From contig CAVXVP010000006.1 in the NCBI GenBank assembly GCA_963765245.1, positions 124,093-188,092 of the forward strand: DNA of 64,000 nucleotides. The letters run 5' to 3'. This DNA comes from an uncultured Chloroflexia bacterium (GTDB taxonomy: Bacteria; Chloroflexota; Limnocylindria; Limnocylindrales; CSP1-4). Under the pieces are notes generated by a model. The model did not search any database and was not told the DNA's origin. It saw only the letters and a program-made list of their open reading frames with translations. Each line of letters starts with the position of its first letter. Position 1 is the stretch's first letter. Below, in pieces: positions 644 to 61,080 of this stretch. Position numbers and translations under genes: made by a program.

Positions 644-857
644 GGTTGATGCTTGATTTCGGCCGCTGGCGAACACGCCGCTGGCGTATGCCAATGGGCG
701 GCATCAAACGCCCACCTGCGGCCAAGGCGGCTGGTCGCATCGCCCTCCCTCCGCGCCGCACCCACGGCCGCGTCGGGCGATCCGTGCGCTGCGTGATGCC
801 GCCCATTGGCATCACGGATCGAGGTGGTTCCGGAGCCCCGAAATCAAGCATCAAACC
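644..857. repeat. Copy A of the interspersed nested-inverted-repeat (MITE-like) element
   Basis: Outer IR TTGATGCTTGATTTCGGCC (646-664) pairs with CCGAAATCAAGCATCAAAC (838-856). Inner IR TATGCCAATGGGCGGCATCA (687-709) pairs with TGATGCCGCCCATTGGCATCA (793-815). The same module recurs at 32832, 33355, 49609 and 60918. Confidence 0.6.
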
Positions 858-944
858 AGATGCGCGCGCGTCCATACCATCAGAACCCCGGCACAGCCGG
901 ATCCGTTGCATCCCGGGCGCCGCTGGTCGCCTACTTCCAGCGGG

Positions 945-1718
945 TCAGGATCGCCTCGCGGTCGAACAGCGCACGCCGACGCGCAGCCCGATCAGGCTCA
1001 CGATGAAGATGATCGCGGCCAGCAGGAGGTACCCGGTCGCCCCGACGAGCAGCGTGCCCGTCGCCTGGAGGAGGGTGATCGCGATGATCGGCACGACGAT
1101 GATGCCGCCGATCTGCTGGGCCACCCGCGGGTCGTTGACCCGCGCGCTGACGATGACCCCGGCGACGACCGACGACAGCCCGACCGCCGGCCCGAGGATG
1201 AAGACGCCGACCAGCCAGCTCGAATCGGTGACGACGCCGAACAGGTTCGGCCCGTAGACGATCGACGCGAGCGCGACGAACGCGATGTACGTGACCCAGC
1301 CGGCCAGGACGCCCGGCACGAGGGCGGCGATCGCCTTGCCGACGAGCAGCTCGAGGGTGCGGATCGGCGTCGCCAGGACCGGCTCCAGGGTTCGCGCCTG
1401 CTTCTCGCCGATGATCGAGAAGGTCGCGATCGAGAGCGGGATGTAGGCCGGCATCAGCAGGAAGAACGCGAGGAACTGCTGGACGGCGAACGCCCCCGCG
1501 AGCTCGGCCTCGGTGAAGCTCGCCCATTCCGGCCGCTGGGCGAGCACCTGCGTGGCCAGCTCGGGCGGCAGCGCGCGATTGCCGACCACCCCGGCCAGGG
1601 CCAGCGGGGCGATGGTGAGGATGACCGGCGGGATGAGGATCGTCGACATCAGCAGCCGGTTCCGAATGGTCTCCGACCACTCGCGGCGGAGGATGGTCGT
1701 CACGATCCGCGCGCGCAT
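945..1718 (-). CDS. ABC-2 type transporter permease
   Basis: 257 aa polytopic protein (MRARIVTTILRREWSETIRNRLLMSTILIPP...). Its ATG at 1718 is immediately downstream of the ATPase gene stop, a typical exporter pair. Confidence 0.75.
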   Translation of the reverse strand: MRARIVTTILRREWSETIRNRLLMSTILIPPVILTIAPLALAGVVGNRALPPELATQVLAQRPEWASFTEAELAGAFAVQQFLAFFLLMPAYIPLSIATFSIIGEKQARTLEPVLATPIRTLELLVGKAIAALVPGVLAGWVTYIAFVALASIVYGPNLFGVVTDSSWLVGVFILGPAVGLSSVVAGVIVSARVNDPRVAQQIGGIIVVPIIAITLLQATGTLLVGATGYLLLAAIIFIVSLIGLRVGVRCSTARRS

Positions 1719-2677
1719 CAGGCGGCCTCGTCGCGGTCGGGCCGGACGCCCATGACCTCGAAATAGACCTGCTCGAGGGTCGTCGCGCGCTCGCGGACGG
1801 TGACGATCGCCGCCCCGGCGCCGACCAGCGCCCGGACGAGGGCCGGCGTGACCGCCCCCGGATCGTCGGTGGCGACGACGAGCCGCAGGTCGGCGACCTC
1901 CACGGCCGTGACGCCGGGCACCGTCCGCGCCGCCGCGACCAGCTCGTCCGATGGCGCCTCGGCCAGCCCGATCTCGACGCCACGCCCGCCGAGCGAGTCA
2001 CGCAACCCCGCCGGCGAATCGACCCGCAACAGCCCGCCGCGCACGAACGCGACCCGGTCGCACAGCCGGTCGGCCTCGTCGAGGTTGTGCGTCGCGAGCA
2101 CGATCGTCCGGCCCGACCGCCGCAGGCTCTCGATCGCCTCGCGCACGACGTATGCCGCCTCCGGGTCGAGCGCCGCCGTCGGCTCGTCGAGGAAGACGAC
2201 GGCCGGCTCGTGGAGCAGTGCCCGGGCGATCGCCAGCTTCTGCTTCATGCCCTTGCTGAAGTTGCCGGCCACGTCGTCGCGCCGGTCCCACAGCGAGAAG
2301 AGGCGCAGGTAGTGCTCGATCCGCTCGGCGCGCGTCGCCGCGTCGAGGCCATAGAGCCGCCCGAAGAAATCGAGGTTGGCGCGTCGCCGACAGCTTGTCG
2401 TACAGCCCGGGCGTCTCGGTCAGGATCCCGACCCGCGCGCGGACCTCCTCCGGGCGTTCGGTCACGTCGAGGCCGTCGACCCAGGCGCGCCCCTCGGTCG
2501 GGGCGATCAGCGCGGTCAGCACCCGGACCGTCGTCGTCTTGCCCGCGCCGTTGGGTCCGAGCAGCCCGAGGACCTCGCCGCGGAGCACCTCGAGGTCGAC
2601 CCCGCGGACCGCCCACAGCTCCCCGAAGCGGCGGCCGAGACCGGTCGCTCGAAGCATCACGGGGTCTGGCGTCGTCA
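1718..2677 (-). CDS. ABC transporter ATP-binding protein (frameshifted around 2385)
   Basis: N-terminal part MTTPDPVMLRATGLGRRFGELWAVRGVDLEVLRGEVLGLLGPNGAGKTTTVRVL carries the Walker A motif. C-terminal part NFSKGMKQKLAIARALLHEPAVVFLDEPTAALD carries the signature and Walker B. The two parts lie in different frames joined by a 1-nt indel. Confidence 0.75.
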
Positions 2678-59674: not shown

Positions 59675-60317
59675 CGAGGATCAGGTCGAGCCCGAACGCG
59701 AATTCTTCATCGTCGTCGCATGCGCCCAGGCCGCCGTCGTGGCTGGCCGCGGCGGCGAGCTCGGCGAGGGCCGGGTAGCTGACCGACAGCGAGCGCACGA
59801 CCATCGCCTGCGTCTCGGGGTCGGGCGCGCGGCCGGAGTCGTCGAACAGGTCCTGGTGGAAACCGAAGATCCGGCTGCTCAGGACGTGGAGCGCGTGGTG
59901 GGCCGTCTCCATCGTGAAGCCGCCGGCGATGAGCGTCGCCAGGACCGTGTCGATGTGGGCGAGGGCTTGCGGGCCGGCCGTTCCCCGTTCCTCGAGGACG
60001 CGCGGCGCCCAGGGGTGGCGGAGCATCACGGTCCGGGCGGCCATCACGATCCCGCGCAGGTCCTGGATCCAGTCGCCACCGGCCGGGGGCCGCTCGATCT
60101 CGCCGATCACGACTTCGGCGACGCCGTCGAGCAGGTCGTCCTTGCCCTTGATGTGGCGGTAGATCGCCATCGCGTCGACGCCGAGCTCCTGGCCGAGCTT
60201 GCGCATGCTCAGGTTGTCGAGGCCGCCCCGGTCGGCGAGGGCCACGCCGGCCTCGAGGATGCGTTCGCGGGTCAGGGGAGCGCGGCGTTCGGTCTGCGCG
60301 GTTTTCTGGATTGCCAC
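59643..60317 (-). CDS. TetR/AcrR family transcriptional regulator (intact)
   Basis: ...LTRERILEAGVALADRGGLDNLSMRKLGQELGVDAMAIYRHIKGKDDLLDGV... has a TetR_N HTH plus a C-terminal ligand domain. Confidence 0.8.
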   Translation of the reverse strand: MAIQKTAQTERRAPLTRERILEAGVALADRGGLDNLSMRKLGQELGVDAMAIYRHIKGKDDLLDGVAEVVIGEIERPPAGGDWIQDLRGIVMAARTVMLRHPWAPRVLEERGTAGPQALAHIDTVLATLIAGGFTMETAHHALHVLSSRIFGFHQDLFDDSGRAPDPETQAMVVRSLSVSYPALAELAAAASHDGGLGACDDDEEFAFGLDLILGGLERVRAAS

Positions 60318-60399
60318 CTTGACAGTGTAGCGGTTGGGCTCGTATGTTTACGGCGTAGTCTACGCTGTAGACGCATAGGAGCCGAGGAGGGCCCAGACC

Positions 60400-60921
60400 A
60401 TGTCCGAATCCATCGAGAACGCACCGCCCCAGAAGGCGCCGCCGTCGGTCCCGCGCTGGCTCGTCCGCACCATCTGGATCGGGCATCGCGCCCTCTACTC
60501 GATCACCGGCGGCCGCGTCGGGCTTCGCGGCTACACCGCGACGCAGTGGGGGATGCTCCGACTCAAGACCGTCGGGCGCCAGACCGGCAAGGAGCGAGTC
60601 GCGATCGTCGGCTACATCGAGGACGGGGTCAACCTGGTCACGCCGGCCATGAACGGCTGGGCGGAACCCGAGCCGGCCTGGTGGCTCAACCTCCAGGCGA
60701 ATCCCGAGGCCGTCGTCGAGCTTCGCGGCGAGTCGCGTCGAGTCGTCGCGCGCGCCGCGGTCGGCGACGAGCGCCGGCGGCTCTGGGAGATGTACCTCGC
60801 GCTAGGCTCGACGGCCTTCACCGACGCCAGTGCCGCACTCCGATCCCGGGAGACGGCGCTCGTCATCTTCGAGCCGGCGGGGGAGTGGGCGCTCCCGTCC
60901 GCGGCCCCTGTCCCGAGTTGA
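60400..60921 (+). CDS. nitroreductase-family deazaflavin (F420H2)-dependent oxidoreductase (Ddn/DUF385-like), intact
   Basis: ...WLVRTIWIGHRALYSITGGRVGLRGYTATQWGMLRLKTVGRQTGKERVAIVGYIEDGVNLVTPAMNGWAEPEPAWWLNLQANPEAVVELRGESRRVVARAAVGDERRRLWEMY... Confidence 0.75.
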   Translation: MSESIENAPPQKAPPSVPRWLVRTIWIGHRALYSITGGRVGLRGYTATQWGMLRLKTVGRQTGKERVAIVGYIEDGVNLVTPAMNGWAEPEPAWWLNLQANPEAVVELRGESRRVVARAAVGDERRRLWEMYLALGSTAFTDASAALRSRETALVIFEPAGEWALPSAAPVPS

Positions 60922-61080
60922 TGCTTGATTTGAGGCGCTCGGCGGCACCTCCGTCTTTGATGCTAATGGGCGGCATAAACCCTGGATGAAGTCTGGTGGC
61001 CTCCGACGCGATCACCTTTGATGCCGCCCATTGGCATCACAAACGAAACCTCGCCTGGACGGCCCAAATCAAGCATCAAG
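60918..61080. repeat. complete compact (163 bp) copy of the nested-IR element
   Basis: GTTGATGCTTGATTT (outer L), TTTGATGCTAATGGGCGGCATAAAC (inner L), about 40 bp core, TTTGATGCCGCCCATTGGCATCAC (inner R), CCCAAATCAAGCATCAAG (outer R). It starts at the stop codon of the Ddn-like gene and ends 63 bp before parD. Confidence 0.6.

Follow-up and report, generated by a model that had tools for sequence, protein, structure and literature searches.

Persistent repeat families are rare in bacterial chromosomes. To our knowledge, the one well-studied case is that of the REPINs, which are built from repetitive extragenic palindromic (REP) sequences, and their partner RAYT (TnpA-REP), a case that rests on a domesticated HUH transposase. 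The traits listed for this association are a single-copy, syntenic gene flanked by the repeats, extragenic singlets and doublets, genome-specific sequence variants, and copies that resemble the unit adjacent to the gene (bioRxiv 10.1101/2021.07.10.451892). Here we describe a family of bipartite repeats in a 64-kb stretch of chromosomal DNA with 70% G+C (the window; all coordinates are positions of the whole stretch) from an uncultured member of the Chloroflexota class Limnocylindria. The family consists of modules of about 65 bp, often arranged as inverted pairs, and is linked to a gene for a small Cro/CI (XRE)-type helix-turn-helix (HTH) protein, which is bracketed by two of the modules at a fixed home locus. 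We read the modules as dispersed, paired binding sites for this dimeric, repressor-like protein that would be copied or converted by rare events, a reading to which we assign a probability of about one half.

Two other kinds of system invite comparison. Multi-operator repressors are known from phage lambda, with looping between OL and OR, and from C.Esp1396I with its 35-bp double operator, while the parS/ParB, matS/MatP and Noc/SlmA systems consist of tens of scattered copies of a palindrome that are read by one conserved DNA-binding protein. With the Cro/CI, C-protein and HipB-type repressors the present family has in common a small HTH protein, here predicted to be dimeric, a palindromic site of 17–21 bp, and sites to the left and right of the repressor gene, which are sometimes tandem copies, an arrangement that is compatible with cooperative binding and looping. 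It differs from them in that the putative operators lie within a 65-bp composite module which is dispersed over the chromosome in inverted pairs, evolves in concert and appears to be copied to new sites. Tens of dispersed, conserved palindromes and one conserved DNA-binding protein are also found in parS/ParB, matS/MatP and Noc/SlmA; those systems, however, use single short palindromes instead of bipartite inverted doublets, do not bracket their own gene and show no genome-specific concerted change.

Anatomy of the modules

The 14-mer TTGATGCTTGATTT has seven exact occurrences in the window, compared with 0.02 expected by chance, and none of 100 shuffled sequences reached seven. Three copies are on the plus strand (starting at 646, 32834 and 60918) and four on the minus strand (841–854, 33457–33470, 49657–49670 and 61066–61079), and all seven are followed, 28–29 nt further on, by (T/G)ATGC(C/T)-N7-GGCAT. 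Read from outside inward, each end forms one module of about 65 bp. The gap between the 14-mer and TGATGCC is 26–27 nt, or 22–24 nt if CGG is assigned to the outer repeat, which agrees with the fixed spacer length given in an earlier reading of this DNA from its letters alone (the sequence-only reading). The repeats that it described are real and interspersed, with further copies in related Chloroflexota, but the five loci that it counted are in fact four, i.e. three inverted doublets (209, 637 and 162 bp) and one singlet, and besides these there is one additional inner-only site. The flip of the inner core between left and right ends was correctly seen, but it merely arises because the entire module is inverted. 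A profile hidden Markov model (HMM) constructed from 92 modules recovered the same seven modules from the window, together with the inner-only site at 33355–33394 and nothing more; no hidden partner for the singlet at 49608–49672 was detected with it.

Alignment of 42, and later 92, modules defined a unit of about 62–65 bp, composed of the outer block TTGATGCTTGATTT(CGGSCG), some 20 variable nt, a T-rich run, and the inner site (T)TGATGC(C)-N7-(G)GCATCA. Besides singlets, this unit forms inverted doublets of 160–320 bp in the intergenic DNA of Limnocylindria-like Chloroflexota. The conserved blocks in this alignment are (T)TGATGCTTGATTT followed by CGGSCG, the T-rich run, and TGATGC(C)-N7-(G)GCAT(C/A). 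The hexamer TGATGC is found three times per module, once at the outer tip and once in each inner arm, being inverted in the right one, so that even a singlet is itself bounded by a 7-bp inverted repeat, TTGATGC/GCATCAA. Both the ATGC...GCAT arms of the inner site and the TGATGC of the outer block are almost invariant. The inner site has a 7-7-7 geometry, with a centre of 6 nt in some modules. The dimeric HTH operator geometry that had been attributed to it is supported. Interiors cannot be aligned from one copy to another, and even within a single copy the left and right arms have unlike spacers.

The 7–9 nt between the inner arms have a genome-specific sequence. The centre reads AATGGAC in the window and in the loci L016 and L020 (L numbers denote the loci used for comparison), (A/G)ATCGTT in all seven modules of L018 and GCGTAGGC in all six modules of L019, and it is of the ACTCGAG type in a different protein clade. 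When the central 9 nt are compared, inner sites from one genome have an identity of 0.855 and those from different genomes one of 0.585 (permutation p ≤ 2e-4). Both arms of two window doublets (W1 and W4, see below) have the derived centre AATGGGC, where the orthologs of W1 have AATGGAC. Centres are unequal between the two arms in several pairs of L018, L019 and L034.

Other repeats were observed at or near some modules. The outer motif occurs in tandem at some ends (L012 4385–4437, L019 about 9761–9818, L042 3563–3600); in L012 the 13-mer TTGATGCTTGATC is present three times ahead of the true end, and L019 has three outer-like copies with a spacing of about 22 bp. Unrelated tandem repeats are frequent in the interiors or downstream of the HTH gene (L004 5660–5900, L001 3700–3890, L003 4680–4790, L043 1375–1420), among them a 20-mer repeated about 15 times, a 32-mer repeated four times and GAAACAGGCGCCC, also repeated four times.

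The HTH gene and its home locus

The HTH gene is located at 32972..33317 on the plus strand (GTG start at 32972, TGA stop at 33315–33317), as delimited by tblastn to intact orthologs and an alignment of nine loci. On its left, the module at 32834..32897 (plus strand) lies in the divergent intergenic region shared with an ABC exporter gene (start at 32761). On its right, an extra inner-only site at 33355..33394 (minus strand; GATGCCCGTGGACGGCAT at 33359–33377), recognized by the profile HMM, is followed by the module at 33408..33470 (minus strand), 89 bp from the stop codon (33559) of a Pyr_redox_2 gene. A conserved block at about 32925–32968 (GATATCC...TAAG...CGCTAG), upstream of the HTH gene, is probably its promoter. 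Both neighbours are conserved: the ABC exporter (ABC_membrane and ABC_tran domains; 30900..32761, minus strand), identified by tblastn and from gene tables, and the thioredoxin-reductase-like Pyr_redox_2 protein (33559..34582, minus strand), the gene of which is frameshifted in this assembly.

Homologs of the HTH protein were traced through the protein database and the contigs of its entries, and through a metagenome scan, giving 38 HTH loci (the window, L001, L004, L006, L016–L020 and 29 metagenome contigs). In every one of them the gene order is ABC exporter, HTH, Pyr_redox_2 and luciferase-like gene, in the same orientation, with the start of the ABC exporter gene facing the HTH gene. Likewise, in all 38 loci the HTH gene has either inverted modules or inner palindromes on its two sides, so that the physical tie between the repeats and the XRE gene in the sequence-only reading holds well beyond the window. 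No HTH homolog was seen in any other gene context among the informative loci from the protein database and the metagenomes. Because the neighbours are the same in every informative locus and no homolog occurs elsewhere, these comparisons indicate that the HTH gene is a single-locus, vertically inherited gene. A mobile element that moves an XRE regulator, as had been suggested, does not agree with one syntenic locus in one orientation throughout. Whenever a long module pair has a gene inside, it is a homologous HTH gene, with the exception of a pair around a DUF4395 gene in L016. A NERD/UvrD-type helicase-nuclease gene is also syntenic: every long locus (L016–L019; 37300–39061 in the window) has it 2–8 kb away from the HTH locus, but this is probably mere conserved gene order.

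Some lineages carry the inner palindromes without the outer 14-mer: in L040, L043 and L047 the HTH gene is surrounded by inner palindromes alone, often with two or three tandem copies downstream, and one to three extra inner sites are found downstream of the gene in L043, L046, L047 and L048. This makes the HTH gene with its flanking palindromes the older part of the system, to which the outer block was added later in the subclade of the window. Outgroup HTH genes (L052–L055; 38–43% identity) have no comparable palindromes alongside and are uninformative in this respect.

The HTH gene is indeed enclosed by a module pair, but the frameshift assigned to it is probably an assembly artefact. It differs by about five single-base indels from eight orthologs, and frame changes relative to close orthologs are found as well in the DZR-cyclase-AAA_16 gene (25907–28736), the ABC exporter gene and the Pyr_redox_2 gene; because these nearby genes change frame too, assembly noise is the simplest explanation. 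The assembly of the window looks indel-noisy and probably derives from long reads, and apparent pseudogenes in it should not be trusted.

The HTH protein has about 80–160 residues and consists of a Cro/CI-type HTH with four helices, followed by a disordered tail that is acidic in many cases. Pfam assigns the orthologs to HTH_31/HTH_3, and sequence matches in the PDB are with 434 repressor/Cro and HipB. An AlphaFold2 model (mean predicted local distance difference test score, pLDDT, of 79) consists of four helices and then the disordered tail, and the closest solved folds to it are those of HipB, C.Esp1396I, C.AhdI, C.BclI, 434 Cro and ClgR. HipB, the controller proteins, 434 Cro and ClgR are dimeric operator binders, some of which bind two adjacent palindromes cooperatively. 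NCBIfam, PADLOC and PHROGs gave generic HTH matches only. No catalytic domain was found in the protein with Pfam, PDB, NCBIfam, PADLOC, PHROGs or the fold search, and the protein has neither room nor a signature for one. Hardly any variation is seen among the lineages in the recognition helix, GIDQTVISR(I/L)ENG, a constancy that matches the invariance of the ATGC/GCAT arms.

Dispersed copies of the modules

A scan with the outer-plus-inner pattern, covering one genome per prokaryotic species, returned 15 loci, all in Chloroflexota metagenome-assembled genomes labelled Candidatus Limnocylindrales, Thermomicrobiales or 'Chloroflexia', in which the modules form inverted pairs 189–855 bp apart plus a few singlets. 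Across the loci, dispersed copies were identified as 19 doublets of 166–316 bp and 8 singlets, all of them intergenic. Eight of the 19 doublets are 195–208 bp long (HMM coordinates) despite their unrelated interiors, and this shared length may mean that the DNA separating the inner sites is constrained in length. Rfam gave no match to the window at the gathering threshold and none to one doublet at E ≤ 1; the module pattern had no match in viral contigs, and blastn found none in plasmids. A search of paper texts for the 14-mer led to four unrelated eukaryote papers only (C. elegans and plant studies), and a literature search on repeats in Limnocylindria gave nothing relevant. The repeat family is real and, as far as these searches could show, undescribed, which fits the earlier failure to recognize it as a named family. 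A phage or plasmid origin was considered and rejected, given the lack of viral and plasmid matches and the weak, generic nature of the HTH matches in PHROGs and PADLOC.

The site at which copies can best be compared between genomes is that of the W1 doublet (646–854, 209 bp). It is formed by W1-left (646..709, plus strand), with the outer 14-mer at 646–659, a spacer of about 26 nt and the inner palindrome GTATGCCAATGGGCGGCATCA at about 685–705 (nhmmer E = 8e-14), and its inverted partner W1-right (790..854, minus strand), found by 14-mer match and profile HMM. The doublet lies downstream of a minus-strand open reading frame with its stop at about 931 (the ortholog of an ABC2_membrane gene in L056–L058) and 83 bp upstream of the start of an EamA gene (563), i.e. 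it does not begin at that start as the sequence-only reading had it. A W1-type doublet is present at the same EamA position in the window, L057 and L058, with 91–95% identity in the EamA coding DNA. When these doublets are compared, the outer 14-mers are identical in 14 of 14 positions in every case and the inner sites are 81–100% identical, whereas the spacers show 57–89% and the interiors 39–62% identity, the latter with different lengths. That the 14-mers and inner sites are kept while spacers and interiors diverge indicates purifying selection on the motif blocks at orthologous sites. The doublet is missing from L056, together with about 30–40 bp of flanking DNA; because this flank is gone too, the L056 site is an imprecise deletion and not an empty target site, and it provides no clean junction. 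Just upstream of the EamA start, a palindrome TTTTGGCCTATGGCCGTAGGCCAA (about 577–600) is kept in L056–L058, where the surrounding intergenic DNA is not, and may be a separate regulatory site.

A second position that speaks for copies being kept in place is found at the arg operon. In L016, L018, L019 and L034 a module or doublet is located 27–93 bp beyond the ARG boxes, in each case with the site centre of its own genome, and the window is without it. The ARG-box-like double operator upstream of the operon, ATGACTATACA-N8-TGCATAGTCATGCAA (window about 25843–25885), is kept in all four of these loci.

Other observations point to gain of modules. The window and L016 share 90% identity along 19 kb, and L016 alone has two modules, at 6027 and 6838, which in inverted orientation bracket an ordinary DUF4395 gene with its promoter, the inner arm TGATGCC supplying the TGA stop codon of the gene. 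The window ortholog of this gene (about 29533–30068) has no modules. In their spacers, both L016 modules match the left-hand module at the L016 HTH gene with 85–89% identity, compared with at most 73% for unrelated modules. Similarly, L017_11610 and the module on the left at the L017 HTH locus share 81% identity. In the window itself, the left HTH module has a spacer unlike that of its positional ortholog in L016 and shares CCACCTCGAT with W1-right, and the derived centre AATGGGC is present in both arms of W1 and of W4. These similarities indicate that single modules are occasionally copied or converted within a genome. Such events keep the family uniform within each genome, including the modules around the HTH gene. 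Apart from the modules, a segment of the window containing the cyclase gene (25884–29542) is absent from the syntenic, 90% identical L016.

The remaining modules of the window adjoin toxin–antitoxin (TA)-like genes. The singlet W3 (49609..49670, minus strand), for which no partner was found, has its inner site 18 nt past the stop codon of a DUF2442 gene (49590). The W4 doublet (162 bp) consists of W4-left (60918..60980, plus strand) and W4-right (61017..61079, minus strand); the outer 14-mer of the former contains the stop codon TGA (60919–60921) of a Ddn-like (F420H2_quin_red) gene, and a pair of ribbon-helix-helix (RHH) antitoxin-like and ParE genes begins 67 bp downstream of the latter. The stop codon within the outer repeat and the two copies next to TA-like modules had both been noticed from the sequence, and Pfam confirmed the module neighbours as EamA, F420H2_quin_red, DUF4160, DUF2442, ParE and the RHH antitoxin-like gene. 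Two segments of the window with the DUF4160/DUF2442 and ParDE-like pairs (48783–59655 and 60881–63133) are absent from the syntenic L021 (about 77% identity), and W3 and W4 are situated at or near the borders of these segments. At the W4 site, L021 and L022 have neither the element nor the ParDE island, their flanks being too diverged to define an insertion point. Outside the repeat element, the palindrome CCAGCATACTGGCATGCTGG (61120–61139), between a TTGACA box and the start of the RHH antitoxin gene, is probably the operator of the ParDE-like pair.

The window also contains features that are separate from the family. These are a tandem array with a 12-bp period and about 10 or more copies, revealed by a repeat scan (36477–36710), a 262-nt duplicate with 94% identity in fn3-like paralogs, 3.3 kb apart (43752–44013 and 47048–47309), and two paralogous segments with 73–79% identity about 980 bp apart (54200–55829).

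Proposed function and alternative explanations

We propose that dimers of the HTH protein bind the inner 17–21-bp palindrome through its invariant ATGC/GCAT arms, and that they probably bind the TGATGC/TTGAT half-sites of the outer block as well. Two inverted modules, either in a doublet or as the pair around the HTH gene, could then be bridged or looped into one nucleoprotein complex. At the home locus, looping would lead to autoregulation of the HTH gene, beside the divergent promoter of the ABC exporter; elsewhere, the modules would constitute a small genome-wide set of paired sites, spread and homogenised via rare copy or conversion events. This is nearest to the dispersed regulon of XRE binding sites, one of the two options in the sequence-only reading; a regulon comes closest to the evidence, but taken alone it leaves the concerted, genome-specific evolution and the fresh copies unexplained.

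Several points weigh against our proposal. Binding of the protein to the inner or outer block is something we infer from linkage, geometry and matched invariance. An invariant recognition helix leaves the genome-specific site centre unexplained, and although the N-terminal region of the protein co-varies with the site centre, this relation is confounded by phylogeny. The gene contexts of the sites are tandem, divergent and convergent in about random proportions and the neighbours are functionally mixed, with no clear promoter-proximal or functional-class preference (EamA, the arg operon, DprA, GntR, malate synthase, SmpB, TA pairs). The copy number is known just roughly, hit densities pointing to perhaps 10–50 modules per genome. 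Finally, the sharp, perfectly conserved outer 14-mer and the inverted pairs look less like ordinary operators than like ends that are handled by a DNA-processing enzyme.

The likeness to the REP/REPIN and RAYT systems is extensive: the units are short, palindromic and extragenic and are found alone or as inverted doublets, repeats flank one syntenic gene that is single-copy and vertically inherited, sequence variants are particular to each genome, new copies are similar to the module beside the gene, and long persistence is combined with rare duplication and the absence of target-site duplications. The modules could accordingly be REPIN-like replicators, i.e. vertically inherited, non-autonomous repeats whose duplication depends on the bracketed single-copy gene, with a partner that would only target or recruit a host nuclease, recombinase or replication template switch. 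We consider this unlikely, as the partner is a plain Cro/CI-type HTH protein that has no catalytic domain, whether of the HUH or tyrosine type or of any other, most spacers have diverged too far (at most 73% identity) for a recent burst, and motifs that are still perfect at old orthologous sites speak for selection in place, against replication from a master sequence. The unit also differs in being bipartite, with the 14-mer and the 21-bp palindrome about 27 nt apart, its copy number appears low (tens), and its host belongs to the Chloroflexota and not to the Proteobacteria. Somewhat less probable again is an ordinary miniature inverted-repeat transposable element (MITE), mobilised in trans through its terminal inverted repeats by a transposase encoded elsewhere, with the XRE gene as an irrelevant neighbour or passenger. 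Like MITEs (Correia/NEMIS) or mobile insertion cassettes, the copies are small and intergenic, have inverted ends of about 65 bp with a sharp outer boundary at the 14-mer, enclose a gene in some cases, differ in presence between relatives (L056 is empty and L016 has two modules more than the window), and fold as long hairpins when in doublets (z −6.6 and −9.1). Yet direct repeats are absent from the flanks of all doublets inspected, 15 or more in number (three in the window plus at least 12 besides), and about 444 kb of loci contain no gene for a transposase, HUH enzyme or recombinase; what is found there inside the long pairs and beside the singlets are HTH or host genes. The copies are unlike one another in their interiors, each copy has different spacers in its two arms, singlets with clean boundaries exist, and the sole empty site is the imprecise deletion in L056. 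The HTH-enclosing copies hold that gene alone, are fixed in 38 of 38 loci and have moved in none of them; a single further long pair, in L016, holds an ordinary DUF4395 gene, and motifs are kept at old orthologous sites. The compact copies, which the sequence-only reading took for MITEs, lack both target-site duplications and a transposase-bearing relative.

The association with variable DNA could instead suggest site-specific recombination, the inner 7-7-7 site being the core of a tyrosine recombinase, the outer block an arm-type site, and the pairs switches or cassette borders. This we regard as improbable to a greater degree than mobilisation in trans. The geometry fits att/lox-type cores, with inverted arms and an asymmetric overlap of 6–8 bp, the derived centre is common to the two arms in W1 and likewise in W4, each genome has uniform centres, and modules adjoin variable islands (TA pairs, the bracketed DUF4395 gene of L016, and indels of 3.7–11 kb versus relatives). 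However, no recombinase gene lies near any locus in the gene tables of L016–L020, the arm centres do differ in several pairs of L018, L019 and L034, there is no match to attC R/L boxes (no GTTRRRY in the consensus) or to dif, and no integrase is encoded in any locus. An inversion switch is ruled out because the bracketed HTH segment has never been found flipped (0 of 38 HTH loci); L007 and L008 agree. Least probable of all, to the point of being hardly credible, is a structured RNA or a terminator or promoter element. The stable hairpins of the doublets and the T-rich run ahead of the inner site in many modules would suit such an element, but the hairpins are trivial because the blocks are inverted repeats, and RNAalifold detected no conserved structure in the 92 modules on either strand. 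There is no complementarity between the spacers of paired arms, modules are found next to genes in all orientations, scans for promoters and terminators gave no consistent match, and the Rfam result given above adds to these objections.

Returning to the proposed paired binding sites and to what they resemble, the family is best filed as a REP/REPIN-like persistent interspersed repeat with a non-catalytic partner or, equivalently, as a copy-and-paste network of composite operator modules. More tentatively, and at odds that we put clearly below even, it could be a second kind of vertically inherited association between repeats and a partner gene, built on a non-catalytic Cro/CI-type HTH protein and on bipartite 65-bp modules that would be kept up, made uniform and now and then duplicated around a fixed home locus; the protein would then mark modules for a host recombination or replication-template-switch pathway, or would employ them as a chromosome-wide looping or anchoring network. 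To annotate the locus as a MITE carrying an XRE gene, or the HTH gene as a pseudogene, would be an error. What is found here is the population signature of REPIN/RAYT attached to a simple repressor-like protein. If this protein indeed binds the modules, the family would provide a tractable case of a transcription-factor site network that is seeded and homogenised by DNA copy-and-paste or, alternatively, a new route for the persistence of short repeats, and it would be a first point of access, regulatory or structural, to Limnocylindria, an uncultured class from soil.

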